The notes: generated by a model not told the origin, from the letters alone. A stretch of 64,000 bases of DNA from an uncultured archaeon (GCA_964486045.1 CAZALK010000002.1:64001-128000); one strand, 5' to 3'; shown: positions 1-34,152, counted from the first letter of the stretch. A program made the numbers and translations.

Positions 1-857
1 TATTTACATGGGAGGACCCAGACGCAAATAATACTGGGGTTGGTAGTGAAGATCGACTTGCTATAATGATTCTTTATCAAGATGCAAATGCTATGGCTGC
101 ACCATGCATGAACCCAGCTTCGAATGGAGCGACTACTAGCGGTACAGTAGACCAATGGCATTGGAAAGCCGCAAGGACGGATTCTGGTGGGGGAAAATAT
201 TCAGTGGTAAGCAGAGGAGGAATAAAATTCAATTTAACTAGTGGTAATGCTACCTATGAAAGTTTAGAATCTTCCAAAGGTTGGTTTGATTTCACAGCTA
301 ACCCTATTCCTACCGGAAACCCTCAAGTTGGAGATGTTGTTTATACAAATGGATCTGATGGTTCTTTTCTAATTGCTAATTCAACAGGTGCTACGAAATT
401 AGATCTCACTCCACATGATAATTCTTTTGCTGAAAATGAATTTATTGATACGACTTCTCGAAGGAGGTCTGGTGATAGTGAATATACTGCTTTTGGTATC
501 TTACCTACAGCTCTTAGTCCTGAGAGTCGTTATCTTGTTAAAGCTAAGGCCAATCATGCATCAGGTAATTGGACATTGGAGATGGTTAGAACCTTAGCAG
601 TCGTCAATCCTGGTGCGGATAAACCAATGATTAGTGGAGAACTTATAAAGTTTGCAGTTGCTGTCTATGACGGTGGTGTCGGTCATAACGAACACGAAAA
701 ATACATTACAAATGCATGGAAGACTTTACAATTAGGTCCAGTTCCAGTTATTACTCCCATTCCAGGATATCCATTGATGATGGTTGGATTAATAACCATT
801 GCATCAGTAGGTATTCTATTCATTATCGCAAAAAAATCGAAAATTATCAGAAATTAA
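1..857 (+). CDS. Ethylbenzene dehydrogenase-related (EB_dh/DOMON-like) heme-binding surface protein with Loki-CTERM-like anchor; 5'-truncated by window edge
   Basis: Frame is open from base 3 (FTWEDPD...SEDRLAIM). Motifs EDRLA, VDQWHWKAAR, WTLEMVR, FAVAVYDG match the paralog at 2494 and EB_dh-type proteins. C-terminus is IPGY + TM + basic tail. Confidence 0.75.
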   Translation, partial: FTWEDPDANNTGVGSEDRLAIMILYQDANAMAAPCMNPASNGATTSGTVDQWHWKAARTDSGGGKYSVVSRGGIKFNLTSGNATYESLESSKGWFDFTANPIPTGNPQVGDVVYTNGSDGSFLIANSTGATKLDLTPHDNSFAENEFIDTTSRRRSGDSEYTAFGILPTALSPESRYLVKAKANHASGNWTLEMVRTLAVVNPGADKPMISGELIKFAVAVYDGGVGHNEHEKYITNAWKTLQLGPVPVITPIPGYPLMMVGLITIASVGILFIIAKKSKIIRN

Positions 858-983
858 AAATTTATTTTTAATTAAATGTATAATCCAAAATCTTATTTTT
901 TTATTTTTTAATTTAACACCCAATTTAATAATGCCAACGAACTTTATATTTTATGGAACCATAGCTAAAAAACGCATCTTATT

Positions 984-2033
984 ATGACAACACGAGCAAG
1001 AAATGAGTCAAATGAAATTTATTATCAAATACAAAAAGTATATATGTTGTCTCTTCTGATAGAGCTAATAATTGCAAGGATCTTCTTTAGATTTGGGATG
1101 ATTTTTCTTCCGATGGGTGTTTACAACGCCATTTATTACATCGGAGTTATTGCAAGATATGTGGTCGTTTTTTTGAATTTCATACTCCTTGGATTGATTA
1201 TATATCGGGGAGCAATGTTGCTTTTTCTTAATTTTTCATTCCCAGTAGTAATCCCGGTAATAGGGCTATCCTTTGTGTTCTCCTTTTTTCTAAGCAGTTA
1301 TGCTTTTTATACTCTTAATCTTCCATTCCCAGTATTAATCCAGGTAATAAATCTGGTCGTAATTGGTTTTTCTTTAAATTATCTTATAATTCGAAATATA
1401 TTGAGAAAGGAGTTTGCAAAAGAGAAAATAATTTTCCCATTTTTAATAATACTTGTAATTACTTTGAACCTCGCTCTTATTCATCAAATTTTTTTCTCTT
1501 TAAATTCCATTTTTGAGATTCCTTATGCTTTTCATGGTTTCATGTTTGGTATTGCGCAATTAATGTCAGTTTTTGTAATTGCTCCACTTTTTTTTGCTTT
1601 ACCCTTCCTTTTTAGGGAAAAAATTGAGATAAAAGGATTTTTAAAAAAAATACCAATAATCCTAATTTGCGGTGCTGTTATCATAATTCTAGGCTTCATT
1701 AATTCACCCATCGTAATGGGTGAAACGGGTAATATGACTCCACCTATAATTTTTGGTTTGATGGTAGTTTTCGTTTCAGGGTATTATGAGATACAAGCTA
1801 GCTTACTACTCATAAACTGGTCTATCATAGTTCTTGGCTTATTTGCTCTTGGTGGTTACTTTTTATGGATTCTGGGAAAGTCAAAGAAAAATCAGACAAT
1901 GAAGCAGTATAGTTACGGAATGTTTGTTATTTTCTGTACAGCTTTTCTTTTTGTTGAGGCTTCAGATTCTTACTTTCTTATGGTACTTTTGAATGGTTTC
2001 CTTATTTTAACTTGGAGAGGCTCAGAATTCTAA
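984..2033 (+). CDS. Polytopic membrane protein (~9-10 TM), unknown function
   Basis: 349-aa ORF that is almost entirely hydrophobic segments; two His (LIHQ, FHG) in the middle. Confidence 0.7.
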   Translation: MTTRARNESNEIYYQIQKVYMLSLLIELIIARIFFRFGMIFLPMGVYNAIYYIGVIARYVVVFLNFILLGLIIYRGAMLLFLNFSFPVVIPVIGLSFVFSFFLSSYAFYTLNLPFPVLIQVINLVVIGFSLNYLIIRNILRKEFAKEKIIFPFLIILVITLNLALIHQIFFSLNSIFEIPYAFHGFMFGIAQLMSVFVIAPLFFALPFLFREKIEIKGFLKKIPIILICGAVIIILGFINSPIVMGETGNMTPPIIFGLMVVFVSGYYEIQASLLLINWSIIVLGLFALGGYFLWILGKSKKNQTMKQYSYGMFVIFCTAFLFVEASDSYFLMVLLNGFLILTWRGSEF

Positions 2034-2493
2034 TAAACTTTTATTTATTACTGTTTGCAGCATTTTTGCGATCTGCTCTTTTAAAGTTGAAAATTCATAA
2101 GGATTTGAAAAAAAAATATTACTGCTCTTACATTTCTTAAAATATAAGTTTTTCTATTATCTTTCTCTCTAAAATAACTTAATAACCGTTATAGCTAATT
2201 CATTTAAAAAGTTTAAAACAGAGTCGAATTGAGCACATAATTATTTATCTTGATTATTTTTATTGATTTTCTTCAAATAATAGCACAATTTCAGAAAATC
2301 ATTTGTTCCAAAATTTTTATTGAAACCTTACATTATGAAAGAAAAATGTTATCCATTTGAGTCAAAATAAGGATAAAACATTTCAGATCTTGATAAAATA
2401 AATTTAAATATTACTCTTTTCTTTAATCTAATATTCTTGGTGATTTTTCGAATCATCGAGTATTTTATCAAAAAATTAATATAGTTGACAAAA

Positions 2494-3732
2494 ATGAATA
2501 AAAAATCTAAAAAAGCAATAATGATTTCACTTGTGATCCTCTTGCCAATTGGGCTTATGATATCAAGCGTCTCCTCAAATTTGCAAGTAAGCGCAGCCGA
2601 TACCTTTAGACCCACTTTTTCCAGTAGTGAGTTAATACTTGATGGGCAAGGAAACGAAGCTGCTTGGACATCTGCAACTCCTTTGGTTATTACTACTACA
2701 GGAGGAACTACTACCCTCACTGCTATAACCTTAAAAGCGGTATATACAAGTGCAAACATCTATATATTGGCATCTTGGGCAGATTCTACATTCAGTATAA
2801 CACGAGATAAATATAATGTTACAGGCGGAGTTTTTGATACAGGTTTAGCAGGGAGTAATTCTGAGGACAGAATTGCCCTTTCATGGGAAATCGGGACAAT
2901 AGCAGGTTTTACCTCAAGTGGATGTGCTACATTTTGCCATTCTTTAGTTGGGAATGTTAATTTCACTAACTCTGGTGAGGTAGCTGATATGTGGCACATA
3001 AAAGCAGCAAGAGGTGGTGGTGCAACTAGCGCAACAATCGATGCCGCTCTTACAATTGATCCTGCGAGTTACGAAGCAACAGCAGGAACTATAACTTTGA
3101 ACGGGTATGCTGATGATAAACATGTAGATACTGTCACAAGACAAAGCGACGCTGGAACAAGCGTATATAGTGATAATACCAATGGGACTCATGCTGCGTG
3201 GATCGAAGCAAATCCAACAGATTGGATAGATGCAATGATATTAACTCAATCTGAAATTGATGGTGGACAAACTATTAACATTACTGAAGCTTTAACAAAT
3301 AGTTGGGCAAACTTAACTTGGGCAGTTAATAATTATACCGCGTTAGATGCTAACGTTCCTAGACATATATTAACTCCTCCCACCGGTAGCCGTGGTGATA
3401 TTGAAGTTTCAATGAGATGGGCAGATGGAATTTGGACAGTCGAGATAAAAAGAGCTCTTGATACTGGGAATGCAGCAGATGATGTTGCATTTACTGACAC
3501 ATCCGCAGGAATGTATCACTTCAGCGTTGCCTTAATGGATAATGAAGGGCAAGGTAAAAGTGGAATTCTTACTCATAGCAAATACACAGGTCCAATTGCA
3601 TTAACATTCGGTGCAGCACCAGGTACCCCTCCAGCAGCTATTCCAGGATTTAATTTAATATTAATAGTTGGAATCACTTTTGCAATCTCAGTAGTTACAA
3701 TTAAGCTAAGGAAATCAAGAATGAATAAATAA
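2494..3732 (+). CDS. EB_dh/DOMON-like exported heme protein with CxxxCH motif and Loki-CTERM-like anchor
   Basis: Signal peptide; LDG..NEAAW, IYILASWAD, EDRIA, GCATFCH, DMWHIKAAR, WTVEIKRAL, FSVALMDN; IPGF-TM-KLRK tail. ATG at 2494 preferred to TTG 2485. Confidence 0.8.
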   Translation: MNKKSKKAIMISLVILLPIGLMISSVSSNLQVSAADTFRPTFSSSELILDGQGNEAAWTSATPLVITTTGGTTTLTAITLKAVYTSANIYILASWADSTFSITRDKYNVTGGVFDTGLAGSNSEDRIALSWEIGTIAGFTSSGCATFCHSLVGNVNFTNSGEVADMWHIKAARGGGATSATIDAALTIDPASYEATAGTITLNGYADDKHVDTVTRQSDAGTSVYSDNTNGTHAAWIEANPTDWIDAMILTQSEIDGGQTINITEALTNSWANLTWAVNNYTALDANVPRHILTPPTGSRGDIEVSMRWADGIWTVEIKRALDTGNAADDVAFTDTSAGMYHFSVALMDNEGQGKSGILTHSKYTGPIALTFGAAPGTPPAAIPGFNLILIVGITFAISVVTIKLRKSRMNK

Positions 3733-3769
3733 GAATTTTTTAAAATCCCATTTTTTTTTTAAATATTTT

Positions 3770-4456: not shown

Positions 4457-5122
4457 ATGAGAAGAAGAAATATTTTAAAACTTTCCATTATAGCAATACT
4501 CTTAGTATCGGTTATTGGAGGAGCTTCAGCCTATCATGAGTATATTTATACTTTTGAAGAAGATCACACTGCCGGTTGTCATAATGGTAACGCTAACAAT
4601 GGAGAAAGCGTAATTGGAAATTTAACGATAACGATTACTCCGAGTGGATCTTTAGAAACCCTACAAGCGTTTACTATTGATGTTGTTATAAACAATTTTA
4701 CAGAGCTTGACAATAGTGCTTATGAGAATAGAACCACCATCGGCATTTCAAAAGATCTTGGAGATAATGCTGCCTTTCTAAGAGGTGTAAGTAATAAATC
4801 TTTTTCCAGGAGAACTAAAGTTGATAAATATGGAAGTGATTTGACACCTACAACACTTGATGCTGTTGCGCCACAAACTGCAGGAGTATACGAGCTTGTT
4901 ATTACAGCTGTCGCAGCTATGAACCAATCAGATGAAAGTGGATACAATTTCACCTTTGCTAAAGGTTCTATTAGTGTGACTGTTGTAGCACCTACTGGAC
5001 CTGCCGCAGCTCCAGGAACAATTTCAGGGGGCATTCTTACAATTATTCTAGGAAGTGTTTTTACTGTCTCTACCGTTATAATACTAAAAATGAGAAAGCG
5101 ATTTAGAAAAAAAGAACTCTAA
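4457..5122 (+). CDS. Exported, C-terminally anchored Ig/Reeler-like protein with N-terminal HxxxCH (putative atypical mono-heme protein)
   Basis: Signal peptide (ASA), HTAGCH near mature N-terminus, beta-rich domain with AP...G.Y.L, ISGG-TM-KMRKR tail; directly upstream of ccmC. Confidence 0.65.
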   Translation: MRRRNILKLSIIAILLVSVIGGASAYHEYIYTFEEDHTAGCHNGNANNGESVIGNLTITITPSGSLETLQAFTIDVVINNFTELDNSAYENRTTIGISKDLGDNAAFLRGVSNKSFSRRTKVDKYGSDLTPTTLDAVAPQTAGVYELVITAVAAMNQSDESGYNFTFAKGSISVTVVAPTGPAAAPGTISGGILTIILGSVFTVSTVIILKMRKRFRKKEL

Positions 5123-5130
5123 AATTAGTA

Positions 5131-5255: not shown

Positions 5256-5996
5256 ATGAGTATTAATTTACCAAATTTTATTCGAACTAATGGTTTGTTA
5301 ATTATTTCATTATACATGCTATTAATTAACTTATTCTTAATTATTGGATTAAGCGTTTCTAACTTAATAATATGGGGAGAAACGGGCAGAATTGTCTATA
5401 TAGTTTTTTTTTACCATGTATCGGGAGCATGGCTTTCATATTTTTCATTTGGGGTTAGTTTAGTTTCGCATGTTTTATATTTCAAATATAGGGATTTAAA
5501 ATGGAATAGAATTGGTACAATCAGCATTATAGTTGGGATTTTTTTTATTGCTTTTGCATTAATAACAGGATCTTTATTCTACAATGCCACTTCAGGAGGA
5601 TATAATAACATTTTTTGGCAGTGGAGTGATGGAAGGCAAACTATGACCCTTGTATTGTTTCTTTCTTATTTATCATACCTTATTTTTAGAACCATGATTG
5701 AAGATAAAGATAAGAAAGCAAAATTATCATCAGCTCTAGGAATTGCATTATTTCCTACTGTTCCTCTAAGTTACATTTCAGCAATAATATTTACGAGTTT
5801 GCATCCATTGATTAATCCCAGCGCAGGTACCGAAAGTCTCGTATCATACCGTGATCCTATAAAACTTTTTATTTTAATATTTAATTTAATCGCGATTTCT
5901 ATTTTATTTGTTTATCTAGTCCAGAAATTATATAATTTAGATTTGAATAAAGAAAAATTAAATGAAATTATCCAAAGAAAACTAATGGAGGAATGA
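5256..5996 (+). CDS. ccmC: Heme exporter / cytochrome c biogenesis protein CcmC
   Basis: 6 TM; FFYHV, degenerate WWD domain (WQWSDGRQT) and LHP histidines; ccm context. Confidence 0.88.
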   Translation: MSINLPNFIRTNGLLIISLYMLLINLFLIIGLSVSNLIIWGETGRIVYIVFFYHVSGAWLSYFSFGVSLVSHVLYFKYRDLKWNRIGTISIIVGIFFIAFALITGSLFYNATSGGYNNIFWQWSDGRQTMTLVLFLSYLSYLIFRTMIEDKDKKAKLSSALGIALFPTVPLSYISAIIFTSLHPLINPSAGTESLVSYRDPIKLFILIFNLIAISILFVYLVQKLYNLDLNKEKLNEIIQRKLMEE

Positions 5997-6148
5997 GTAT
6001 CCTGTCAGTACAATTCCAAGATATCATCACAATCACTATATGTTATTCATTATTTTGGGGTGTTATTATTATCTTAATCCTATATCCTAAACTCCGACTA
6101 AGAAAAATTTTAAAAAGAATTGAAAATTTTGAAAAAAATCTAGACTGA
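5993..6148 (+). CDS. ccmD: CcmD-like small membrane protein (51 aa, not in ORF track)
   Basis: ATGA overlap with ccmC stop; MSILSVQFQDIITITICYSLFWGVIIILILYPKLRLRKILKRIENFEKNLD has one TM with Y..xW and a basic helix; lies between ccmC and ccmE. Confidence 0.75.
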   Translation: MSILSVQFQDIITITICYSLFWGVIIILILYPKLRLRKILKRIENFEKNLD

Positions 6149-6160
6149 AGGAGGAAATAA

Positions 6161-6499
6161 ATGCATAAATCTAAGTTAATTGCGATTGGAGGAATTGTTG
6201 TCTCAATAATCGTTATTGTTTCATTGATATCAATAAACTCACGACCATATCTCCAGGTTTCTCAAGTTGTATCGAGTCCATCTCAATATAATAATAAACA
6301 AGTTCAAGTTATCGGAATAGTCCAAGGATTTTCTGGTGGAAATTTTAATTTAACCGAAAATGAGCACAGTGTATTGATTGATATGACCGGAGTTTCAATA
6401 CCAGATGAATTAGATAACGGTATACAAGTAGTAGTAACAGGTGTATTTGATTCTTCTTTAATTATAGTTGCGACTCAACTTCTTACGCAGTGTAGCTAA
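6161..6499 (+). CDS. ccmE: Heme chaperone CcmE (Cys-type, ends LLTQCS*)
   Basis: N-terminal TM, PYLQVSQV, OB-fold (VQVIGIV, GIQVVVTGVF), GGAGG SD, position after ccmCD. Confidence 0.82.
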   Translation: MHKSKLIAIGGIVVSIIVIVSLISINSRPYLQVSQVVSSPSQYNNKQVQVIGIVQGFSGGNFNLTENEHSVLIDMTGVSIPDELDNGIQVVVTGVFDSSLIIVATQLLTQCS

Positions 6500-6506
6500 A
6501 TTTGAT

Positions 6507-7232
6507 TCAATCATATAACAGAGTCTGAGAAAGTAAAATTAAGATTGAAATCATAAGAGTAATATGCGCTACTAGGAATATAATTTCATAGAACAACTCG
6601 GATATAAAACTACCCCCCAATATTTTTAAATTTAGAGAGATAATAGGAGCTGTAATTGGTAAAATTAAAGGAAATAATAAAATGGGTAACACAAAGGATT
6701 TATTTTTAACATACATCGAAAAAGCAGATACCATGCTACCGCATATGGATAAATCTAATGTCGGTAATAACACACCTAAAACAATAAAAATACCTAGTTG
6801 AGAAAGGCTCAAATTTTCAACTGACGGTACGGATAAAAAAATGCTGAAAAGGAATAAAATTACCTCAATAAAACTTAATAAAATTAAACAATAGAAAATT
6901 TTACTTAAAAGTATTATATTGCCTGATATTGGGGAAGAGATTAATCCCCCGAGTGTTCCAGACTCTTTTTCTTTAATAAATAACTTTGACATAAGATAAA
7001 TGAGGGTAAAAAAAATTATTAACCAAACTTCAATTACAAAAATTTCTAAAGGCATATTTTGAATTTGAGTGCTGAAGTTATACACCGATGAAAATATAAA
7101 AACTGAGATAATATCAAAAAGAAAAATAGAAAACATATCATTAATTTGCCTAATCTCCGATTTTATATCTTTAAACAGGATTGTTTTAAAAATTTTAAAT
7201 CGTGATTTTTGGTCTTTATCCTTATTATGCAA
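6507..7232 (-). CDS. ccmB: Heme exporter permease CcmB
   Basis: KDIKSEIR, EKESGTL, LPILLFPLILP motifs; 6 TM. Confidence 0.88.
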   Translation of the reverse strand: MHNKDKDQKSRFKIFKTILFKDIKSEIRQINDMFSIFLFDIISVFIFSSVYNFSTQIQNMPLEIFVIEVWLIIFFTLIYLMSKLFIKEKESGTLGGLISSPISGNIILLSKIFYCLILLSFIEVILFLFSIFLSVPSVENLSLSQLGIFIVLGVLLPTLDLSICGSMVSAFSMYVKNKSFVLPILLFPLILPITAPIISLNLKILGGSFISELFYEIIFLVAHITLMISILILLSQTLLYD

Positions 7233-7247
7233 CTATATGAAGTCACC

Positions 7248-7961
7248 CTAAAAATATGATTCAATTTGAATTTCTCTATATTCCTTTTTGGTAAGGAATT
7301 TATTGACCTTACCTCTTTTTAAAACAACGATTTCATCACAAATTTGTGTTAAGATCTCAATTTTATGAGTGGTAAGAATTATCGACACATTCTCTTTATC
7401 TCTCAACTCTATTAATGCATCAATTATTAATTTAGTTGTATTAAAGTCTAAACCTGAAAATGGCTCATCCAAAAACATAATCGAGGGATGATGCATAAAC
7501 ACCCTTATTAATTCTACTTTTTTTTTCATCCCATGCGATAAATTCTCAACAGGTTCGTGAATCCATTTTGTTAAGTTGAATTTTTTTGCGAATTTTTCAA
7601 TTTTGGTTTTAATCCTATTTTTATCAAAATTTTGGTGCAGATTATCATAGAACTTTAAGTTTTCAAAAATAGTCAATTCTTCATAGAGAAAAGATTCATC
7701 GGTTGAAATCCCTATTTTCTTCTTTAAAGCATTTGAATGGTTAATATAATCCATCCCTTTAATCACAATTCTCCCCAAAGTGGGAGTGATTAATCCACAC
7801 ATGATCTTTATTAAGGTTGTTTTTCCAGCTCCGTTCGCACCTGCTATTCCGATTATTGTATTTTCTTTAGTTTTAAAAGATATATTTTTGAGAGCAAAAA
7901 AGTAACCAAATTGTTTTGATACATTTACACAGTTTATTAATTCTTTTTTAGTCTCAATCAT
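7248..7961 (-). CDS. ccmA: Heme exporter ABC ATPase CcmA
   Basis: Walker A GANGAGKTT, LSHGM signature, LDEPF Walker B; immediately upstream of ccmB. Confidence 0.88.
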   Translation of the reverse strand: MIETKKELINCVNVSKQFGYFFALKNISFKTKENTIIGIAGANGAGKTTLIKIMCGLITPTLGRIVIKGMDYINHSNALKKKIGISTDESFLYEELTIFENLKFYDNLHQNFDKNRIKTKIEKFAKKFNLTKWIHEPVENLSHGMKKKVELIRVFMHHPSIMFLDEPFSGLDFNTTKLIIDALIELRDKENVSIILTTHKIEILTQICDEIVVLKRGKVNKFLTKKEYREIQIESYF

Positions 7962-10155: not shown

Positions 10156-10482
10156 ATGTCAATCGAATTAACAAACAAATCCCGGGAATATATTGGTAAG
10201 AAGAATATAAACAATTTGTTTATTGATTTAATTTATATGGAGGAATCCTGTGCACAAATTTATGACCCTAAGATAAGAATAATTGAAAAAAGAGATCTAG
10301 AAAAATTTGAAGATTATGATAATATTTCTATTGATAATTTAACTTTATATATTTCAAATGCATTTACTAAAATTTATGGAAAACTTGACAAATATCTCCT
10401 GGATACAAGTGGGATTGTTAAGAAGAGTTTAGTTCTTAGGAATGTAGACTCAATTATAAGAAATATCTGTAAACCAAAATAA
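10156..10482 (+). CDS. Small hypothetical protein, loosely HesB-like/CC-Se-motif-like
   Basis: 108-aa ORF, IELTNKSREYI start, ESC; first gene before TlpA/ccdA. Confidence 0.5.
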   Translation: MSIELTNKSREYIGKKNINNLFIDLIYMEESCAQIYDPKIRIIEKRDLEKFEDYDNISIDNLTLYISNAFTKIYGKLDKYLLDTSGIVKKSLVLRNVDSIIRNICKPK

Positions 10483-18335: not shown

Positions 18336-18347
18336 GGCAAAAATGAT

Positions 18348-19376: not shown

Positions 19377-19613
19377 CGAATTCTATTGTTTTTTTGAAGT
19401 TTAACAACTGAGCTGAGAAGGGGTAATTTTCTCTTAATAATAATTTCATTTCAGCTTTAAATATGTGTGATTAAGATTTTTCCTTGAGAAATCAATTTGT
19501 GTGTATAAACATTACGTATTTATCGCATTTAGATAATATATAAATAAAGCTTCTATTTCTATTGACATACAAGAGAACTTAATATTATTCTAACAAATTT
19601 AGTGTGTATTATT

Positions 19614-25303: not shown

Positions 25304-26781
25304 GTAAAACGAAATTTAAACTTTCAAGGAATCTCTCTGATATAAAGGCATCCTATTCAAAAATCAAAGAAGCAGGAATTGACTTCTCTCGCACATTATC
25401 CGAAAGGATTAGTTCAAGCGGTGATACAACTGGAACCCCATTTTATCATTTTCGGTGGAAACAACACTTTTTAGCTGATTATATAGCGTATCCTAAAAAC
25501 GATGAAGATATTATGAAGATAGTTCAATTGGCAAATGAATATACTATTTCAGTTACACCTAGAGGTGCTGGTAGCTGTTACTATGGATCTGGATCACCGA
25601 CTAATGGTGGTGTTGTAATTGATATGAAACGAATGAAAGAATGTCATATCAATAGAGATAACATGACCGCTACCGTTCAAACTGGTATCTGTTTCTCCCG
25701 ATTAATGGACCTTCTCGACGAACAGGATTTAGAATTAGGGTGTTATCCAACAAGCGCTCTTACAACAACCTTAGGTGGTTGGATTGGAACGGGGGGAGTA
25801 ATGGGTATTGGAACTTTACAAAATGGGCCTTTCTCAGATCAAATGGTTTCAATGAAAGTGGTAAGTCCAACAGGGGATTTAAAAGAATATGACAAAAAAG
25901 TTGATTTTGATCAATTTTTTGGTAGTAATGGAATTTTTGGAATAGTGACTGAAGTTGTATTAAAAGTCTTTCCTAAATCGAGAAAAATTGTTCCTCTTCT
26001 GCTTGGGTTTGAATCTCTGGGGGAATTATTAATGTCTATCAAAGATATACTTTCTAAAACAGACCCTTTTGTATTAAGGTTTTCAGATAAATATCATGAA
26101 TACAATTGTTCTGGTCTAAGTAGACACTCGCATTATATTTTTCTTTTATACAATGGGAGAAACAGGGATTTGGATGAAGATGTGAAAGAAGCTTTAAGGT
26201 TAGTAGAAAACTATAACGGAACTTTTTTAGGTAACAAGTTTTCAAACAGTACTTGGGATGATTATTTAAAACATGAATTAAAAATTAAACTTGAAACACC
26301 TGTCCAAATGCTTCAGCAAATTTATATTAATTTTGAAAAGACTGAATCCATTATTACCTATTTCGAAAAGTTGATAAAGAAAAATAAATTAAACCATTGC
26401 TTTTATGGGCTTATCAATAGAGATAATAATGTTAGACTTTGTCTTTATACCCCAACCGACAACGAATATTGGATGCATTTTATAGCAAGCAAGGCTGTTA
26501 TCAGTAGGGCTGTTAAATATGCATATAAGCTTGGTGGAAGAATTTATACTTACGGTCTTCAAAATACGATTTATTTACACAAATTCGAGAAAAATAAACT
26601 GAAGAGATTAAAAGAAAAAAAAGCAGAAGTTGATCCTAACTATATATTAAATCCACTTAAAATTGTGAAGTCAAAGATAAGTTTCTGGCGCGTCAATAGC
26701 ATGTTCGAGCTAATGTTGCGTTGGAGAAGGTGGGCTGTAAGACTAGGTCTTGCTAAAGAAATTCTAGTTCTAGATATATAA
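25300..26781 (+). CDS. FAD-binding oxidoreductase, GlcD family (copy 2)
   Basis: TPRGAGS, GGVVIDM, TLGGWIGTGG, GSNGIFGIVTE, DPNYILNP; ATGA overlap with the upstream gene. Confidence 0.88.
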   Translation: MSKTKFKLSRNLSDIKASYSKIKEAGIDFSRTLSERISSSGDTTGTPFYHFRWKQHFLADYIAYPKNDEDIMKIVQLANEYTISVTPRGAGSCYYGSGSPTNGGVVIDMKRMKECHINRDNMTATVQTGICFSRLMDLLDEQDLELGCYPTSALTTTLGGWIGTGGVMGIGTLQNGPFSDQMVSMKVVSPTGDLKEYDKKVDFDQFFGSNGIFGIVTEVVLKVFPKSRKIVPLLLGFESLGELLMSIKDILSKTDPFVLRFSDKYHEYNCSGLSRHSHYIFLLYNGRNRDLDEDVKEALRLVENYNGTFLGNKFSNSTWDDYLKHELKIKLETPVQMLQQIYINFEKTESIITYFEKLIKKNKLNHCFYGLINRDNNVRLCLYTPTDNEYWMHFIASKAVISRAVKYAYKLGGRIYTYGLQNTIYLHKFEKNKLKRLKEKKAEVDPNYILNPLKIVKSKISFWRVNSMFELMLRWRRWAVRLGLAKEILVLDI

Positions 26782-26804: not shown

Positions 26805-28091
26805 ATGTCAAAAACAGAAGAAAAAAAAATACCAAAAACTAAGAAAAAAAAAGCAAAAAAGAAAATTTCAAAACGCTATATAAATTCAGTAGTTGAGGCT
26901 AGTAGTCCTTCTGAACAACGAATAAAATTTAAGGAATATTCAAATAATGACCTGATAAAAGCTTGTGCTAATTGCTCGATGTGCAGAGATGAATGCCCTA
27001 CTTATGTATCTCGAGAAGCAGAATCCTTTTATGCTGGTGGAAGAATGAGAATACTTAGAACGATTGTAGAACGTAATTTACCCATCACTGATGACTTTGT
27101 TGAAGCAATGTTTTTATGTACAACATGTAAACAATGCGAAGACATCTGTCCTATAGGTGTAAAATATGTGGATTTGATCGAAGAATTAAGAGCTGAACTT
27201 GTTCAAGAAGGGATAGGTCCTTACGGGAATCTAATCGGTTTTTCCAAAAGTATTTGTCTTAATAATAACCCGTACGGGGAACCCCCTTCTAAAAGAGCAG
27301 ATTGGGTTGAAGAAGGAATAAATGTAATTGAAAAAGGACCTTATGCTTATTTTGTTGGGTGTACATCTTCCTATAGAACACAAAGTGCAGCTGTAAGTAC
27401 TGGTAAGATTCTTACCAAAATTCTTGGAGGGATTGTATTACTTGGACCTGAAGAGGTTTGTTGCGGGAGCCCAATAATTCGGACTGGGCAAATTGACTTT
27501 CAATTAGAAATTGAAGAAGGAAAGTTTGTTCCTTTTACAGTTGAGGATTACATTACACGAAATATTGAAAATATCATAAAGAAGGAGGTAGAAGAAGTTA
27601 TCTTTTCTTGTTCTGGATGTTATAAAACCTCCACAGATGATTGGCCGAAATATTTTAGTAAAGACATTCCTTTTAAAAGAACTCATATATCACAATTCTT
27701 AGCTCGTTTAGTTGAACAAAACAAGATCCAATTCAAACCATTTAACAAAAAAGTCACATATCATGACCCTTGCCATCTAGGAAGACATCGAAAAGTCTAC
27801 GATGATCCGAGAACGGTATTACAAGCAATCCCAGAACTAGAGTTTATTGAAATGAGGAAAAATCGTAATCGGTCCAGATGTTGTGGTGCTGGTGGTGGAG
27901 TAAAGGCAGGATTCGCTGCAGATGCATTAAGTATTGCGACGGTTAGAGTTCAAGAGGCAATTGATGCTGGAGCAGATATTTTAGCTACTTCTTGTGTATT
28001 TTGCAAATATAACTTCTTAGACGCTAAAAAGGAAATGGGTGCCGACATCGAAATATTAAATATAGAGGATATCGTAGTAGATCTTTTATGA
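26805..28091 (+). CDS. GlcF/HdrD-like CCG Fe-S oxidoreductase (copy 2)
   Basis: CANCSMCRDECP, CTTCKQCEDICP, VCCG, YHDPCHLGR, RCCGAGGG. Confidence 0.92.
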   Translation: MSKTEEKKIPKTKKKKAKKKISKRYINSVVEASSPSEQRIKFKEYSNNDLIKACANCSMCRDECPTYVSREAESFYAGGRMRILRTIVERNLPITDDFVEAMFLCTTCKQCEDICPIGVKYVDLIEELRAELVQEGIGPYGNLIGFSKSICLNNNPYGEPPSKRADWVEEGINVIEKGPYAYFVGCTSSYRTQSAAVSTGKILTKILGGIVLLGPEEVCCGSPIIRTGQIDFQLEIEEGKFVPFTVEDYITRNIENIIKKEVEEVIFSCSGCYKTSTDDWPKYFSKDIPFKRTHISQFLARLVEQNKIQFKPFNKKVTYHDPCHLGRHRKVYDDPRTVLQAIPELEFIEMRKNRNRSRCCGAGGGVKAGFAADALSIATVRVQEAIDAGADILATSCVFCKYNFLDAKKEMGADIEILNIEDIVVDLL

Positions 28092-28395: not shown

Positions 28396-28950
28396 ATGGA
28401 AAATATAAAATCTGATAAGATTGTTGAATTTACTGATGATTTAGCTGATTTACTGAGAGACGCTGGATATTTGGAAATTGGGGCATGCATAAGTTGCGGA
28501 ACTTGTACTGGTGGTTGCCCTTCTGGAAGACGAACCGCACTGAATACGAGAGCTTTAATAAGAAAAGCTCAATTAGGACTTGATGAAATCCTTTCAGATA
28601 AAGAGTTATGGTTCTGCTCAACATGTTATACCTGTTTAGAAAGATGTCCCCGAAGTGTACCAGTTACAGATGTAATAATTTATTTAAGAAACCTTGCTGT
28701 TCAAAGAGGTTTTATCCAAGAACCTCACCGAGTGTTATGCAAAATGTTTTATAATACAGGACACGGAGTTCCTATAAACGAAGAGAAATGGAACAAATTA
28801 AGAGAATACTATAAAATAAGCAGTATTCCTCCTACTACTCACAAATTTCCTAATGCTCAAAAAGAAGTTCAAACTCTTCTCAAAAGTACAGAGTTTGATA
28901 AACTTGTGGCTGTTGGAGATTTTGAAAAAAAAGCAGAGAATGGTGAATAG
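28396..28950 (+). CDS. hdrC: Heterodisulfide reductase subunit C
   Basis: CISCGTCTGGCPSG, LWFCSTCYTCLERCPR, TGHGVP. Confidence 0.95.
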   Translation: MENIKSDKIVEFTDDLADLLRDAGYLEIGACISCGTCTGGCPSGRRTALNTRALIRKAQLGLDEILSDKELWFCSTCYTCLERCPRSVPVTDVIIYLRNLAVQRGFIQEPHRVLCKMFYNTGHGVPINEEKWNKLREYYKISSIPPTTHKFPNAQKEVQTLLKSTEFDKLVAVGDFEKKAENGE

Positions 28951-28955
28951 AAATC

Positions 28956-29897
28956 ATGGTTTATAAGAAATTGAAGTATTCCCTTTTTTTAGGTTGCGTC
29001 ATTCCTAATAGATATTCTTTTATAGAAGCTGCTACAAGAAATGTTTTTGAAGAGTTAGGAATAGAATTGATCGATATGGATGGTGCATCTTGTTGTCCTG
29101 CACCAGGAGTGTTTCGAGGGTTTGATATAGATACATGGTTAGTAATAGGCGCAAGGAATATTAGTATTGCTGAAGAAAACGGAACAGACATCGCGCTGAT
29201 GTGTAATGGATGCTACGGAAGTTTACTTGACATAAATCATACATTAAAACATGATAAAAAAAAACTAAAAATGGTAAATCAACATCTTGCAAAAATCGGC
29301 AGGAAATTTCAAGGAACGTCAGAAATTAAACATGTAATGGATATTTTATATAATGATTATGGTGTAGACAGAATTAAAAAGCGAATGATCAACCCTTTGA
29401 ACTTAAATCTTGCTGTACATTACGGCTGTCATCTTTTAAAACCCTGTGAAATTCGACCTTGGGATAAGGAAGTTGAAGATCCACACTTTTTCGATGAGAT
29501 GGTAGAAACAACTGGGTGTAAAAGCTTAAATTACAAAGATAAACTGATGTGTTGTGGTGCCGGAGGTGGTGTAAGAGGTGCATTCAAGGAAGTTTCTCTC
29601 GATTTTACTAGAGAGAAATTAGAAAACATAGTTGCAAGTGGCGCTGATGCAATTATAACCGCTTGCCCATTCTGTCAATTACAACTTGACCTAGGTCAAT
29701 TAGAAGTAAATGGAATTTTTAAAGATAGAATTAATGCACCATTTAAAATTCCTGTAGTTTACTTTACTCAATTATTGGGTCTTGGGATGGGGATGACGAA
29801 TGATGAGCTTGGATTATTAAAAGAACATGATTTAGCAGGGGTTCCCCCATTTACTTCATTAGAACCTTTTTTACAAAAAATTGCTAAAAAAACATAA
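28956..29897 (+). CDS. hdrB: Heterodisulfide reductase subunit B
   Basis: FLGCVIPNRY, ASCCPAPG, CNGCYGSL, HYGCH, CCGAGGG, CPFCQLQ. Confidence 0.96.
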   Translation: MVYKKLKYSLFLGCVIPNRYSFIEAATRNVFEELGIELIDMDGASCCPAPGVFRGFDIDTWLVIGARNISIAEENGTDIALMCNGCYGSLLDINHTLKHDKKKLKMVNQHLAKIGRKFQGTSEIKHVMDILYNDYGVDRIKKRMINPLNLNLAVHYGCHLLKPCEIRPWDKEVEDPHFFDEMVETTGCKSLNYKDKLMCCGAGGGVRGAFKEVSLDFTREKLENIVASGADAIITACPFCQLQLDLGQLEVNGIFKDRINAPFKIPVVYFTQLLGLGMGMTNDELGLLKEHDLAGVPPFTSLEPFLQKIAKKT

Positions 29898-29911
29898 AAG
29901 GAGTTAAAAAT

Positions 29912-31924
29912 ATGGCAGAATCTAAAAAAGAAATAAAACTGACTGGTAGAGAAGATCCAAAAGTTGGTGTTTATGTTTGTTGGTGTGGAATAAACATTGG
30001 TGGTATTGTAGACGTTCCAAAACTCGTAGAATACGCCAAAACCTTACCCAATGTCGTTGAAGCTAAGGATTACAAGTTTTATTGCTCTGATATTGGACAA
30101 ACAATGATTCAAGAAGATATTAAGGCTGGTTTGATTAATCGTGTTGTTGTCGCCGCTTGTTCTCCAAGAATGCATGAACCTACATTCAGGACAGCGTGTC
30201 AGGAAGCTGGATTAAATAAATTTCTATTTGAACAAGCTAATATACGTGAGCACTGCACTTGGGTAAATGCAGATGATATTCCGGGAGCTACAAATATAGC
30301 TGAGGATCATATTAGAATAGCAGTGGCTAAAGCCTCAAATTTAATGCCTTTGGAGGTGACTAAGGTCAAGGTTGAACCATCTTGCCTTATAGTGGGTGCA
30401 GGAATATCTGGAATGAACGCCGCTTTGGATCTCGGAAATTCGGGTTATAAAGTCTATTTAGTGGAAAGAACATCTACTATAGGCGGACATATGGCCCAAT
30501 TAGATAAAACTTTCCCCACAATGGACTGCTCGGCTTGTACTATTACTCCTCGTATGACTGATGTATCCCGAAATCCTAATATAGAGTTATTAACATACTC
30601 AGAAGTAGAATCTATAGATGGTTTTGTAGGAAATTTTAATGTAAAAATAAAAAAAAAACCACATTATATTGACCAGAGCACATGCAATGGTTGCGGTGAT
30701 TGTGCTGAAGTATGCCCCATTGTATGTGGTAATGAATTTGATCTAGGAATGAAACCAAGAAAAGCCGCCTACATTCCTTTTCCACAAGCTGTTCCAGGCC
30801 AATATACTATAGATATGGATCATTGTATAGTATGCGGACTCTGTGCTGATGCTTGTGAACCTAGGTCTGTAAACTATGATGAAAAGCCAGAATTCATGGA
30901 AGTAAAAGTAGGCACTATAATTTTGGCAACTGGTTACGATGCTTTCGATCCTACTACTAAATTGAAGCAATATGGGTATGGAAAATATCCAAATGTTATT
31001 ACTGGTTTCCAAATGGAAAGACTTTTAAGTTCATTTGGACCGACGGAAGGCAAAATAAAAAGACCTTCAGATTTAAAAGAACCTAATACAGTGGTTTTTC
31101 TCCAATGTGTGGGTAGTCGAGATTTCTCAGGAAAAACTAATAAATATTGTTCAAGAGTTTGTTGCATGTATGCTACAAAACAAGCGCGTCAGTATAAGGA
31201 AAAGCATCCTGAAGCGAAAATTTATATTTTTTACATGGATATAAGAGCATTTGGTAAAGGCTATGAAGAATTCTATGAATCAGCTGGTAAAGATTACGGG
31301 GTTAAATACATTAGAGGTCGAATTGCCGAGGTTTTAGAGGATGAAAATCATGATATTCTTATACGAGCTGAAGATACTTTACTCCAACGACGAGTTGAAA
31401 TAAAAGTTGATATGTTAGTATTATCTGTAGGGTTAGAACCACGTAGCGATATGGAAGATGTAGCACGTAAATTTAATGTTCAAAGAACTGAAGACGGTTT
31501 TTTAATGGAAGCACATCCGAAGCTGCGTCCAGTTGACACGCTAACAGAGGGAATATTCTTGGCAGGAACAGTCCAAGGCCCAAAAGACATACCGGATGCA
31601 GTTGCTCAAGCAAAAGGTGCAGCATCAGGCGCAGCTACTTTAATGGCTCGAGGAGAAGTTGAGATCGAACCATACTATGCAAAAGTTCTTAATTATAAAT
31701 GTGCTGGCTGTAAAAGTTGTATCAGTCTATGTGCCTTTTCCGCTATAACATTCAATGAATTTGAAAAAGTTGCTGTTATTAACGAGATTCTTTGTAAAGG
31801 GTGTGGTACTTGTGTAGCAGCGTGTCCTTCGGATGCTATTGTTCAGAATCAATTTGGAGACATCCAAATCTTACCGATGATAGAGACCGCAATTCCACAA
31901 AAATCTAAAGCTGGAGGAGACTAA
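29912..31924 (+). CDS. hdrA: Heterodisulfide reductase subunit A
   Basis: VYVCWCGINIG, AACSPRMHE, DKTFPTMDCSAC, CVGSRD, YCSRVCC, HPKLRP, ferredoxin motifs. Confidence 0.97.
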   Translation: MAESKKEIKLTGREDPKVGVYVCWCGINIGGIVDVPKLVEYAKTLPNVVEAKDYKFYCSDIGQTMIQEDIKAGLINRVVVAACSPRMHEPTFRTACQEAGLNKFLFEQANIREHCTWVNADDIPGATNIAEDHIRIAVAKASNLMPLEVTKVKVEPSCLIVGAGISGMNAALDLGNSGYKVYLVERTSTIGGHMAQLDKTFPTMDCSACTITPRMTDVSRNPNIELLTYSEVESIDGFVGNFNVKIKKKPHYIDQSTCNGCGDCAEVCPIVCGNEFDLGMKPRKAAYIPFPQAVPGQYTIDMDHCIVCGLCADACEPRSVNYDEKPEFMEVKVGTIILATGYDAFDPTTKLKQYGYGKYPNVITGFQMERLLSSFGPTEGKIKRPSDLKEPNTVVFLQCVGSRDFSGKTNKYCSRVCCMYATKQARQYKEKHPEAKIYIFYMDIRAFGKGYEEFYESAGKDYGVKYIRGRIAEVLEDENHDILIRAEDTLLQRRVEIKVDMLVLSVGLEPRSDMEDVARKFNVQRTEDGFLMEAHPKLRPVDTLTEGIFLAGTVQGPKDIPDAVAQAKGAASGAATLMARGEVEIEPYYAKVLNYKCAGCKSCISLCAFSAITFNEFEKVAVINEILCKGCGTCVAACPSDAIVQNQFGDIQILPMIETAIPQKSKAGGD

Positions 31925-31926
31925 AA

Positions 31927-32364
31927 CTGAGTAGCCAAGTAAGTTTTAAACCTTATATTTTAGGAATTTTTTGTAATTGGTGTTCGTATGCTGGAGCGGA
32001 TCAAGCTGGAACTTCTCGTATGCAAAGACCTGCTAATTTAAGAATTGTAAGAGTAATGTGTGGTGGACGGGTTGATCCTCAATTTATTCTAAATGCTCTA
32101 AAAAATGGTGCTGACGGTGTTTTAGTAAGTCATTGTCATCCTGGAGATTGTCATTATGTTGAAGGGAATCTAAAAACAATTCGAAAATTACCTTTACTTC
32201 ATTTATACTTGAAACAATTTGGAATTAACCCAAAAAGAGTTAAATACGTATTTGTATCGGCTTCTGAAGGGATTGAGTTAACTAGAATCGTAAAGGAATT
32301 TGTAGAAGAACTAAATGAATTAGGTCCTAGCCCTATATTAAAAGAATTAAAAGTAAAAGTTTGA
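31927..32364 (+). CDS. mvhD: MvhD [2Fe-2S] subunit, CTG start
   Basis: The frame upstream of ATG 32020 encodes the essential FCNWCSYAGAD; VMCGGRVD, CHPGDCHY, SASEG; GGAGGA at 31913-31918 then CTG at 31927. Confidence 0.93.
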   Translation: MSSQVSFKPYILGIFCNWCSYAGADQAGTSRMQRPANLRIVRVMCGGRVDPQFILNALKNGADGVLVSHCHPGDCHYVEGNLKTIRKLPLLHLYLKQFGINPKRVKYVFVSASEGIELTRIVKEFVEELNELGPSPILKELKVKV

Positions 32365-32385
32365 GGTAAATGAGGTAAGTTAAAA

Positions 32386-34152
32386 ATGTATCCAAGGGTA
32401 AAAAGAATCAAGAATGATAAAATTGACGAGGTTATTGTAAACTTCTACCTCGAAAATCAGGCATTAGAATATAATAGGGAAGATTGTGTTGGGTGTGGAG
32501 TTTGTTTCAAAGTATGCCCGAAGGAAGCAATTAGCGATCCTAAAGATAACGGTGTGATTGACACAAGTTTTTCATTTGATGATTTAGATAAGGCAGTTAT
32601 CAGTTCGAACAATTGTTGTTTTTGCGGATTATGCGCTTCCCTGTGTAAAATAATTGGGATTGAAAATGACAAACCAAAACTCTTAGAAGATTGCTCTGAA
32701 TGTTCTAAATGTACTAGATTTTGTGCAAGAACCTATATAACGGAAGGTGAACTTGAAGAAGCAATTTTTAATGGAAAAACTCGAACAAATCCTTTATTCG
32801 GATATTTTCAAAAAGCTATTACAGCACAAACAACTAATAAACATGCGCTAGAAGTGGCCCAAAATGGTGGAACATGTTCTACAATCCTTATTCACGCTCT
32901 CGAGACAGGATTAATTGATGGTGCACTTCTTACGGGAATGGATGAAAATTGGAAGCCAAAACCTATCATCGCAACAACAAAAGAAGAGATATTATCCGCT
33001 GGTGGCTCCAGATATACTATGGCACCTTCGTTGCTCGTTTATAGTGAGGCAATTATTAAACATAAGCTCAAAAAACTAGCATTCGTTGGAATGCCCTGCC
33101 AAATTGATGCTGTCAGAAAACTCCAATTAGACTCGCCTTTTTCTGAGCAATTAGGAAAAATAACTTTGACCATTGGGTTATATTGCTCATCAAATTATAC
33201 ATATGAATTAATGGAAAAACTAGTAGTTGAAAAGCTTGAAGTGCCTATTAATGAAGTAAAGAAAATCGACATCTCAAAAGGTAAGTTATTTGTATATAAG
33301 AAAGATGGTGAAGTTAAAAAAATTGGAGTAAAACAAACCGTACCGTATTATTGGGATAGCTGCAAATATTGTGATGATTACACTGCTGAATTTGCTGACA
33401 TCTCTTTAGGAAGTGTTGGGGCGCCTACAGATGATTGGAATAGTGTGTTCATTCGTTCAGATTTAGGGATGAAAATTTTCGACGATCTAGTCGCTGCTGG
33501 AAAAATAACAACTGCTAATGATTTTGAGATCGAAAGACTTGAGAGAGAATGTACTCGTAAAAAGAAAAACGTGGTTGATTTAGAAAAGAAATACTTGAGT
33601 GTTGAGGATCTCGAGGCTTACTTCATAACTACTGAGGATCTAATACCAGAAGTTCCCGATCCACTTGCATGTGCTTATTGCGGCACATGTGCAATTATGT
33701 GTCCTTGGTCCACTATAACGTTAAAAAAGGATGGTCAAGCAATAGAATTAAAAGACATTGAGATTGTAGAAAAAAATGTCGTGCCAAGTTTAAACATTAA
33801 GCTCACTGACTGTGATATTATTAAGAGAAAAGCAAAGGTCTATGTCGAAGGCAAAATGGATTTAAATTGGGATAAATGTATCAATTGTTTATCTTGCATT
33901 GAAGTTTGTCCAACGGGAGCCTTTTTTAGTGCTGATATTCCAAATGAAGGACCAGCGTTGGAATATAATGGTGTAAAATATGAACAAGGAAGATGGCGTG
34001 AAGTAGATTATGACGATGATAAATGTATTCGATGTGGCGCTTGCGTCATGGCATGTCCAACTAGCACTATGACTTTAATTATTGACAAGGTCAATTTCTC
34101 TGGGGAATATCAAGATGTTTTCTGGTTGGATGTAATACAGCGTCTTAAGTGA
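32386..34152 (+). CDS. FrhB/FdhB-like F420-binding subunit embedded in polyferredoxin domains
   Basis: AQNGG, GSRY, FVGMPCQ, IGLYC, CKYCDDYTAEFADISLGSVG, flanked by several CxxCxxCxxxCP motifs on both sides. Confidence 0.9.
   Translation: MYPRVKRIKNDKIDEVIVNFYLENQALEYNREDCVGCGVCFKVCPKEAISDPKDNGVIDTSFSFDDLDKAVISSNNCCFCGLCASLCKIIGIENDKPKLLEDCSECSKCTRFCARTYITEGELEEAIFNGKTRTNPLFGYFQKAITAQTTNKHALEVAQNGGTCSTILIHALETGLIDGALLTGMDENWKPKPIIATTKEEILSAGGSRYTMAPSLLVYSEAIIKHKLKKLAFVGMPCQIDAVRKLQLDSPFSEQLGKITLTIGLYCSSNYTYELMEKLVVEKLEVPINEVKKIDISKGKLFVYKKDGEVKKIGVKQTVPYYWDSCKYCDDYTAEFADISLGSVGAPTDDWNSVFIRSDLGMKIFDDLVAAGKITTANDFEIERLERECTRKKKNVVDLEKKYLSVEDLEAYFITTEDLIPEVPDPLACAYCGTCAIMCPWSTITLKKDGQAIELKDIEIVEKNVVPSLNIKLTDCDIIKRKAKVYVEGKMDLNWDKCINCLSCIEVCPTGAFFSADIPNEGPALEYNGVKYEQGRWREVDYDDDKCIRCGACVMACPTSTMTLIIDKVNFSGEYQDVFWLDVIQRLK

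Follow-up and report, generated by a model that had tools for sequence, protein, structure and literature searches.

A conserved ccm-linked gene module of Asgard archaea encodes putative one-cysteine c-type cytochromes and a new membrane dehydrogenase architecture

Introduction

Which proteins does a cytochrome c maturation (Ccm, System I) machinery serve in an archaeon whose exported proteins hold no canonical CxxCH motif? This question is raised by a 64,000-nucleotide stretch of DNA, hereafter called the window, which is C2:64001-128000 of genome G000, an assembly of 5.18 Mb in 45 contigs (99% complete, 7.8% contamination, about 30% GC). An original prediction had proposed that the first 34 kb of the window form one locus for electron transfer across or outside the membrane, made up of anchored EB_dh/DOMON-like heme proteins, a Ccm set with TlpA and CcdA, two paralogous three-gene operons and an HdrCBA-MvhD-FrhB cluster. 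We analyzed the gene content by open reading frame (ORF) calling together with Pfam and NCBIfam searches, and every gene on that list was recovered in its place; gene coordinates are counted in the window. Since the homologs bear the name "Promethearchaeota archaeon" (metagenome-assembled genomes, MAGs) and the DNA of the locus is present in marine sediment metagenomes among public runs, the assignment of the host to the Asgard archaea (Lokiarchaeia-type) holds. Comparisons covered a family census of 135 genomes and a wider census of 400 Asgard genomes, in which f1, f3 and f31 are family codes. Related genomes are not independent, and the census figures are therefore given as counts, not as statistics.

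The answer that we put forward is that the machinery would serve exported proteins in which a single cysteine precedes the histidine of the motif. To judge from sequence, these are likely to be single-thioether c-type cytochromes at the outward-facing end of a dehydrogenase complex that works without quinone. The module is conserved and, as a variation on c-type cytochromes and System I, undescribed; it combines this variation with a new membrane dehydrogenase architecture. Literature searches returned no paper on HXXCH cytochrome motifs, on Asgard Ccm systems or cytochromes of this kind, or on an operon of cytochrome-four-transmembrane (4-TM), GlcD-like and CCG proteins.

Exported proteins with a one-cysteine motif

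The first gene of the core operon (12586-13476, plus strand) encodes a signal peptide, the motif HSACH, an immunoglobulin (Ig)-like sandwich, a short linker and a domain of four transmembrane (TM) helices with the invariant residues H172, H203 and H242. Its paralog in the second operon (24392-25303, plus strand) is 44% identical and carries HNSASCH. In this layout, modeled by AlphaFold2 with a predicted local distance difference test (pLDDT) score of 80, H-x2/4-C-H lies about 10 residues past the predicted cleavage site. A smaller exported protein of 221 amino acids (4457-5122, plus strand), which heads the ccmC strand, has Hx3CH (HTAGCH) near its mature N terminus, followed by an Ig-like sandwich and a C-terminal anchor. 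The N termini are signal-peptide-like and the 4-TM part obeys the positive-inside rule, consistent with export. Each of the three motifs holds one cysteine and thus matches neither CxxCH nor CX3-4CH.

A scan of the whole genome gave 46 ORFs with CxxCH, which were zinc ribbons, ferredoxins and the like, and none of them had a signal peptide. The prediction that the window encodes no exported canonical CxxCH protein is thus true of the entire 5.18-Mb assembly. The exported CH-motif proteins of this genome carry HSACH, HNSASCH, HTAGCH and CATFCH (the last in an EB_dh protein), together with THGGCH and STIGCH on contig C5.

In sets of 22 and 25 homologs of the cytochrome-4TM protein, H34, C37, H38, H172, H203 and H242 were invariant, while the mean column identity was 53%; on these alignments, the conservation of H34, C37 and H38 is far above what chance would give. 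Similarly, C41 and H42 of the 4457-5122 protein were invariant in its alignment (A4), and its f31 ortholog reads CGDCH. Indeed, orthologs in family f31 carry CSVCH, CSDCH, CGDCH or CDNTGCH at the matching N-terminal position and in the matching operon beside ccm. Because these orthologs hold textbook CxxCH or CX4CH motifs, we read the one-cysteine motif as a heme c site, and the first Cys of an ancestral CxxCH would have been replaced by His to give H-x2-4-C-H. The replacement of the first Cys together with a divergent maturation recalls the mitochondrial cytochromes c and c1 of Euglenozoa (F/AxxCH; PMC8262978). However, those are class I alpha-helical proteins with a eukaryotic maturation, whereas here we find an Ig-like sandwich, usually a His at position 1 and a derivative of System I.

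A profile search of 1.84 billion proteins found only 111 representatives of the cytochrome-4TM family. Those with the N-terminal domain were divided into 39 C-xn-CH, 16 H-xn-CH, 26 x-CH and 3 other motifs, and the Cys-His pair is the core common to all main motif classes. In an unrooted tree, a near-pure CxnCH clade stood against one of 47 rows, where Cys-His is kept while the residue at the first position has switched repeatedly. The spacing C-x-CH, counted within the x-CH class, was present in 8 of the 62 tree rows. These representatives (P0208, P0210, P0211, P0215, P0222, P0225, P0231 and P0276) have a one-residue spacer, and this C-x-C-H spacing is not among the usual variants of the heme c motif (CXXCH, CX3CH, CX4CH and CX15CH). 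Among the homologs, that of G273:C12 (L039:967-1881) has NCH and that of G282:C77 (L040:951-1859) has C-N-C-H, each being followed by a GlcD-like gene. In a closed 6.04-Mb Ccm-negative relative, Ala replaces the motif Cys (GAHSDGWYSI). The family is invisible to standard annotation, since searches for CxxCH call its carriers cytochrome-free and neither Pfam nor NCBIfam has a model for it.

Large exported proteins with HxxCH or Hx3CH (798 to more than 1,280 amino acids, the sole CH being N-terminal) lie between ccmA and ccmF in 12 loci (L013, L017, L019, L020, L023, L027-L029, L031, L032, L034 and L036). Big_7 Ig domains were found in that of L013, the one scanned. The window genome has no such giant and holds tlpA-ccdA in its place. 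The model NF041895 ("choice-of-anchor V") matched a large relative only and stayed below threshold there (22.8 bits; cut-off 42), and the window proteins were not matched.

The AlphaFold2 model of the 4457-5122 protein (pLDDT 70) is a generic Ig/MG sandwich. As in cytochrome f, a signal peptide is followed by the motif, which lies some 20 residues or less from the mature N terminus, by a beta-sandwich and by a C-terminal TM helix. This is a resemblance of design only, as the structural match was weak and ranked 39 (Z 6.9, root mean square deviation 4.2 Å) and there is no sequence similarity.

Linkage of the cytochromes to the ccm genes

The conserved core covers about 12 kb and consists of the small HxnCH gene, ccmC, the ccmD-like gene and ccmE; ccmB, ccmA and ccmF; and the genes of the HxnCH-4TM, GlcD-like and CCG proteins. 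Directly before the last three, ccmF was found in 24 of the 26 named Promethearchaeota loci. Longer flanks add the small HxnCH gene, ccmC and ccmE as well as ccmB and ccmA upstream, and the small gene is there wherever the flank reaches.

This linkage extends to whole genomes. All 26 genomes with a full-length cytochrome-4TM ortholog (E < 1e-117) have CcmC/F, and among the 400 Asgard genomes a homolog was found in 86 and CcmC/F in 102. In the genus of the window genome, both were present in 18 genomes and neither in 34; one genome had the homolog only, as a membrane-domain fragment, and one had Ccm only, with ccmF at a contig end. The corresponding counts for family f31 were 40 with both, 1 with the homolog only, 5 with Ccm only and 43 with neither. 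Taken together with the gene order and the CxxCH orthologs, this co-occurrence makes it very probable that the HxnCH proteins are Ccm clients, as had been predicted.

The synteny and profiling proposed along with that prediction gave a divided result. The HxnCH-4TM gene tracks ccm, but three other parts are distributed independently across genomes, namely EB_dh, CcdA and the FrhB-like protein. EB_dh proteins with CX3CH occur in 3 of the 135 family genomes and are absent from 27 of the 30 that are Ccm-positive. CcdA is present in 4 of these 30 and also in 13 Ccm-negative genomes. The FrhB-like fusion of 588 amino acids had no full-length ortholog in the genus, and paralogs of about 50% identity occur with and without Ccm. 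Based on these distributions, and since the second operon is a diverged paralog, the 34 kb represent a conserved core with genome-specific accretions. The candidate of a single, co-inherited 34-kb locus was thus rejected. EB_dh, TlpA/CcdA and the second operon are add-ons specific to the window genome and stand outside the core.

An altered System I

The genes of an archaeal System I are all present in the window, as identified by Pfam and NCBIfam. CcmC (5256-5996; PF01578, TIGR01191), a CcmD-like candidate (5993-6148) and CcmE (6161-6499; PF03100) are encoded on the plus strand, and CcmB (6507-7232; PF03379), the ABC ATPase CcmA (7248-7961; PF00005 and gene order) and CcmF (8095-9834; 579 amino acids; PF01578, TIGR00353) on the minus strand. 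The ResA/TlpA-like thioredoxin and CcdA were identified as well, so that the set named beforehand is complete. With the same searches, no CcmH-like gene was found in the cluster and no CcmI was seen.

The CcmD-like candidate has 51 amino acids and a single TM helix, and its ORF overlaps the ccmC stop by 4 nucleotides. It is kept between ccmC and ccmE in 11 loci, of which L001 and L012 are overlapping fetches of one contig. CcmD was a leading Pfam match in all three orthologs analyzed, although below threshold (16.5-22.6 bits against 25.6). To our knowledge, archaea have been reported to be without CcmD.

Several parts of the machinery differ from what is usual. Window CcmE, ending in LLTQCS, keeps the heme-binding Cys, but neither the CxxxY Tyr nor a C-terminal tail follows it. 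The QCS terminus was found in 12 of 12 f1 orthologs (13 rows, L001 being L012), and the f31 CcmE reads ..SCPSKYEATTTP, with CPSKY. The WWD region of CcmC is FWQWSDGRQT as opposed to YWNW-DPRET in f31, so that it is longer by one residue and altered in its first half, and both His ligands are kept. CcmF retains WGRYWGWDPVET, WHP, FFHT and IIHVG, that is, the WWD region and four His, and alignment revealed that it is without the outer C-terminal domain of about 100 amino acids of f31 CcmF. CcdA is missing from 26 of the 30 Ccm-positive family genomes, which fits one-cysteine clients since these have no intramolecular disulfide to reduce. Taken at face value, the Ccm machine is altered together with the client motif, in CcmE, CcmC and CcmF and, in most Ccm-positive family genomes, by the absence of CcdA.

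The closest known system is the archaeal System I described in Methanosarcina acetivorans (PMC9084895), along with its Desulfovibrio variant. It shares CcmA, B, C, E and F, the Cys-type CcmE and the WWD region and His of CcmF, and neither CcmH nor CcmI is seen. However, CxxxY was called universal in archaeal CcmE and its Cys was found to be required (PMC9084895), whereas CcmE here stops two residues after the Cys and is without the universal Tyr. The machinery here further differs in the CcmF without outer C-terminal domain, the insertion in the CcmC WWD, the conserved CcmD-like ORF and the one-cysteine clients.

The membrane domain and its cytoplasmic partners

The membrane domain has four TM helices, and its three invariant His are conserved across families f1, f3 and f31. 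H172 and H242 sit where helices 1 and 3 reach the outer face, and H203 where helix 2 reaches the inner face. Two conserved loops of basic character, ENKFVKxHG and AAERKPAK, are on the inner side. A heme b would be held between H172 and H242. The 4-TM domain also exists alone, with no cytochrome domain attached, in Ccm-negative genomes.

The domain had been called b561-like, a name that did not survive. It has four TM helices and three His as opposed to six and four in b561, and PF03188 gave no match even at E = 10. Cytochrome b561 was thus rejected as its identity, and the Atlas feature score of 0.76 is a lead only, as are all scores of that search (0.76-0.81, DUF420 and b561). The best Pfam match was DUF420 (PF04238), below threshold, with 19.3 bits against 30.5 for the domain alone (E 0.0014) and 14.2 bits for a standalone homolog. 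A PDB profile search with the family alignment A1 returned nothing meaningful. Fold searches gave generic four-helix bundles, among which Cox3 (Z 12.1) and a designed di-heme bundle (Z 10.3) are within helical-bundle noise. As the searches with both AlphaFold2 models gave generic matches only, no specific fold relative can be claimed. The domain is a four-helix, three-histidine family without a Pfam or NCBIfam model.

The other two genes of each operon encode cytoplasmic proteins, in the order that had been predicted for both paralogous operons. In the core operon, these are a GlcD-like flavoprotein binding flavin adenine dinucleotide (FAD) (13508-14995, plus strand; PF01565, FAD_binding_4), which is of the VAO/PCMH type and D-2-hydroxyacid dehydrogenase-like, and an HdrD/TfrB/GlcF-like protein (15103-16449, plus strand; PF13183 and two PF02754) with two [4Fe-4S] clusters and two CCG domains, which is 78-84% identical among orthologs. 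In the second operon, the flavoprotein gene (25300-26781, plus strand) overlaps the preceding stop by 4 nucleotides and is followed by the gene of the CCG Fe-S protein (26805-28091, plus strand; Pfam, NCBIfam), which likewise has two [4Fe-4S] clusters and two CCG domains. The two flavoproteins scored 127 and 112 bits with TIGR00387 (GlcD, cut-off 568), and the GlcF model NF008434 gave 93 and 72 bits (cut-off 333). No GlcE gene was found in either operon, and the flavoproteins are not GlcD equivalogs. The nearest solved relatives of the flavoprotein are glycolate oxidase, LctD and D-lactate dehydrogenase (D-LDH). The CCG protein is nearest to TfrB, followed by LdhH, GlpC, GlcF, TmcB, HmcF and DsrK, all below the curated cut-offs. 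Of these, TmcB, HmcF and DsrK are proteins that attach to a cytochrome b subunit in the membrane. A predicted complex of the CCG protein, the 4-TM domain and two hemes scored 0.00, which speaks neither for nor against binding.

Overall, the operon has the build of the transmembrane electron module that had been predicted. A protein with two [4Fe-4S] clusters and CCG domains beside a His-bearing membrane subunit is also found in HdrDE, DsrMK(JOP), TmcABCD, HmcABCDEF and the fused "iron-sulfur-binding reductase" 9ojn, and the Tmc, Hmc and Dsr systems encode an outward-facing cytochrome c alongside, as would be the case here. However, the membrane subunit in our operon is not of the NarI/HdrE type but is an unrelated protein with four TM helices and three His, fused to the outer cytochrome. 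Furthermore, a VAO-type flavoprotein is the electron input and no quinone-related subunit is seen in the operon. GlcDEF, LctD and LDHD likewise pair an FAD_binding_4 flavoprotein with a GlcF-like Fe-S/CCG partner, but GlcE is missing here and a membrane cytochrome subunit stands in place of quinone or O2 coupling.

Electron flow and alternative explanations

In the scheme that we favor, a remodeled System I (CcmABC, a CcmD-like protein, CcmE and CcmF) would mature lineage-specific, exported Ig-like c-type cytochromes, each holding one heme near the mature N terminus by a single thioether to the invariant Cys and by the His next to it. The cytochrome-4TM protein would be co-transcribed with the cytoplasmic FAD flavoprotein and the HdrD/TfrB-like Fe-S/CCG protein. 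Electrons would pass from a D-2-hydroxyacid or a similar compound to FAD, the Fe-S/CCG protein, the membrane heme and the outer heme c, and from there to the small anchored HxnCH cytochrome; in the window genome, the EB_dh heme proteins may follow. From these parts we infer heme binding, the membrane heme b, complex formation, substrate, direction and acceptor, and by extrapolation extracellular electron transfer is plausible. Metal or humic reduction and transfer to a partner, the uses that had been proposed, are speculative. A bolder version would have a Lokiarchaeia-type System I re-engineered and specialized for one-cysteine cytochromes, usually with no branch for thiol reduction. The His in place of the first Cys may then be a recognition residue, a ligand or the site of a second, His-vinyl covalent link, a bond known in the cyanobacterial hemoglobin GlbN. 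The cytochromes would terminate, on the outside, a wire that bypasses quinones, through which archaea that mostly are heme auxotrophs could hand the electrons of 2-hydroxyacid oxidation to acceptors outside the cell or to syntrophic partners. We think it unlikely that this version holds in full.

Several observations weigh against the scheme. H203 has no conserved partner, and the membrane domain matched no known heme b or cytochrome b family in Pfam or in the PDB profile search. No named enzyme has a curated cut-off that the GlcD-like and CCG scores come near, so that the substrate is a guess. G273 (93% complete) and G282 (78%) have xCH/CxCH homologs while CcmC/F were undetected, reflecting either assembly gaps or a branch of the family freed from Ccm dependence. 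HemB (PF00490) was found in 1 of the 135 family genomes, which is the window genome, in 19 of the 400 Asgard genomes and in about 6 of the 102 that are Ccm-positive. By this count, most Asgard archaea with Ccm appear to be tetrapyrrole auxotrophs, and most carriers would have to import heme. No RNA set is among the public runs listed as holding the locus. Finally, single-cysteine cytochromes are very poor substrates of the Escherichia coli System I and stall as a CcmE-heme-cytochrome intermediate (PMC3268396). Since the variants stall as such adducts, the changed CcmE C terminus could itself be a plausible adaptation of System I to one-cysteine clients.

The E. coli results, obtained with a laboratory System I that barely handles single-Cys motifs (PMC3268396), also favor a different explanation, namely that Ccm serves only two-cysteine clients such as the CX3CH protein of the EB_dh family, and that the HxnCH proteins bind heme non-covalently or not at all. 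The window genome does encode such a client together with TlpA and CcdA, and the two MAGs without detected Ccm retain xCH or CxCH homologs. However, 27 of the 30 Ccm-positive family genomes are without that client, and in the ccm flanks fetched from those genomes (flanks, not whole genomes) no exported protein other than the HxnCH ones was seen to have a CH motif. The Cys is moreover invariant in 25 orthologs, and it is the closed genome without Ccm that has Ala. We consider this explanation improbable. The linkage to ccm, not to copper genes, also bears on the idea that H-x-x-C-H is a copper, zinc or iron site in a metallochaperone or cupredoxin-like carrier. Many proteins bind Cu or Zn with a His/Cys/His triad, the domain is an Ig-like sandwich, and the UniRef name of one homolog starts with "Cytochrome oxidase subu...". 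Against this, orthologs carry textbook CxxCH, CX3CH or CX4CH and 26 x-CH representatives are without the first His, which leaves a metal site with very little probability. A role of the one-heme proteins in heme capture, storage or detoxification in heme auxotrophs appears just as far-fetched to us. It would account for carriers that mostly are without HemB and for the large surface forms, in which a single site sits at the tip of a long Ig-repeat protein, but heme attached covalently by Ccm is not reusable, and the His-bearing membrane fusion and the flavoprotein/Fe-S operon point to a redox role.

Within a redox role, the direction could be the opposite one, the outer cytochromes being fed by a partner, by reduced humics or by Fe(II) or sulfide and the CCG protein reducing a cytoplasmic disulfide or a 2-oxoacid, much as HdrDE and DsrMK do with disulfides. 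The CCG domains of HdrB/D, DsrK and TfrB act in thiol/disulfide chemistry, and the best NCBIfam match of the CCG protein is TfrB, the thiol:fumarate reductase subunit. In addition, the second operon abuts HdrCBA-MvhD, and a relative on contig C5 precedes a heme-membrane::HdrC fusion and HdrB. On the other hand, every operon has a VAO-type flavoprotein, whose solved relatives are substrate-oxidizing dehydrogenases, the Hdr adjacency is not conserved and nothing points to a disulfide carrier. Inward flow has thus, in our view, a modest chance.

If the one-cysteine cytochromes are as we propose, two rules, the rejection of single-Cys substrates by laboratory System I (PMC3268396) and the universal CxxxY of CcmE (PMC9084895), are seemingly broken together in dozens of genomes. 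With this module, the way in which System I recognizes a substrate and frees heme from CcmE becomes directly testable. A module of flavoprotein, Fe-S protein, membrane heme and outer heme would provide Lokiarchaeia with a membrane electron outlet, which bears on syntrophy scenarios of eukaryogenesis. Models of Lokiarchaeia describe fermenters reliant on the transfer of H2 or formate. If the bolder version holds, the closest prokaryotic relatives of eukaryotes would have a route for interspecies electron transfer besides these two. Carriers apparently unable to make tetrapyrroles also raise the question of heme sharing in sediments.

Accessory genes and neighboring loci

Both anchored EB_dh/DOMON-like proteins that had been announced were confirmed, scoring above the PF09459 cut-off of 33.3 bits and having a C-terminal TM anchor. 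The first (3-857, plus strand, 50.7 bits), an exported protein cut at its 5' end, also gave weak, sub-threshold matches to the dimethyl sulfoxide (DMSO)-reductase type II heme b subunit and to Sulfolobus CbsA. The second (2485-3732, plus strand, 79.5 bits), exported as well, carries CATFCH and is probably a two-cysteine Ccm client. The paralogs differ at the heme site, with AAPCMN in the first and GCATFCH in the second, which suggests a Met-type or single-Cys site beside the CX3CH paralog. The G-C-x3-C-H of this subfamily is conserved in bacterial and archaeal homologs, and GGxxxCH is found in some Asgard members. PF09459 is shared with the ethylbenzene dehydrogenase gamma and DMSO-reductase type II heme b subunits, and CbsA is exported and anchored too, but no catalytic molybdoenzyme partner is nearby here and one copy has the covalent-type CX3CH. 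A polytopic membrane protein of 349 amino acids (984-2033, plus strand) without Pfam or NCBIfam match follows EB_dh here and in L031.

The ResA/TlpA-like exported thioredoxin (10512-11045, CPYC) and the thiol-reductant transporter CcdA (11103-11846, PF02683), both on the plus strand, are preceded by a gene for a 108-amino-acid protein (10156-10482, plus strand) with a weak match to a CC/Se motif family, which travels with tlpA-ccdA also in G229. EB_dh and CcdA-TlpA occur together in G000 and G229, EB_dh without a CcdA match in G230, and CcdA without EB_dh in G187 and G207. It is suggestive, but not established, that CcdA/TlpA tracks only genomes with two-Cys EB_dh clients.

The window genome also has a complete siroheme-route (Ahb) heme block at C2:45913-55582 (L037:1913-11582), 8.5-18 kb upstream of the window. 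It encodes AhbC, a CobA-HemD fusion, HemC, HemA, AhbB::precorrin-2 dehydrogenase, AhbA, AhbD, HemL and HemB. The block is one more accretion of this genome and speaks for the scheme that we favor.

Downstream of the second operon, HdrC, HdrB, HdrA, MvhD and the FrhB-polyferredoxin fusion of 588 amino acids were found at 28396-34152 (plus strand) by Pfam and NCBIfam, as predicted. A similar adjacency was present in only one other locus (L016), and the cluster is a neighbor with no conserved link to the core in the loci compared.

A third related module of four parts lies at C5:152750-157580 (L038:2751-7581), with similar loci in G229 and G189. It encodes a small anchored protein with THGGCH, a 304-amino-acid STIGCH-4TM paralog without H172 and H242, a 440-amino-acid protein in which a 6-TM part (H-x13-H, H-x12-H) is fused to an HdrC-type protein with two [4Fe-4S] clusters, and HdrB. 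The spacing H-x13-H/H-x12-H is that of the di-heme domains of ferric reductases and NADPH oxidases (NOX). The locus follows one and the same plan but is built from other components.

Between the first operon and the multi-PAS kinase downstream of it (16484-19376) lie three genes with no evident tie to the cytochrome module. They encode a ChsH2-type Zn-ribbon/OB protein, a ThiF/MoeB-type E1-like enzyme and a ThiI-like PP-loop::NFACT-R fusion, NFACT-R being an RNA-binding domain. The 64 kb hold four very large multi-PAS histidine kinases (19602-23513 and 36454-39552 on the plus strand, 56835-59405 and 60532-63945 on the minus strand), one of which sits between both cytochrome operons. PAS domains are able to sense redox state or heme.

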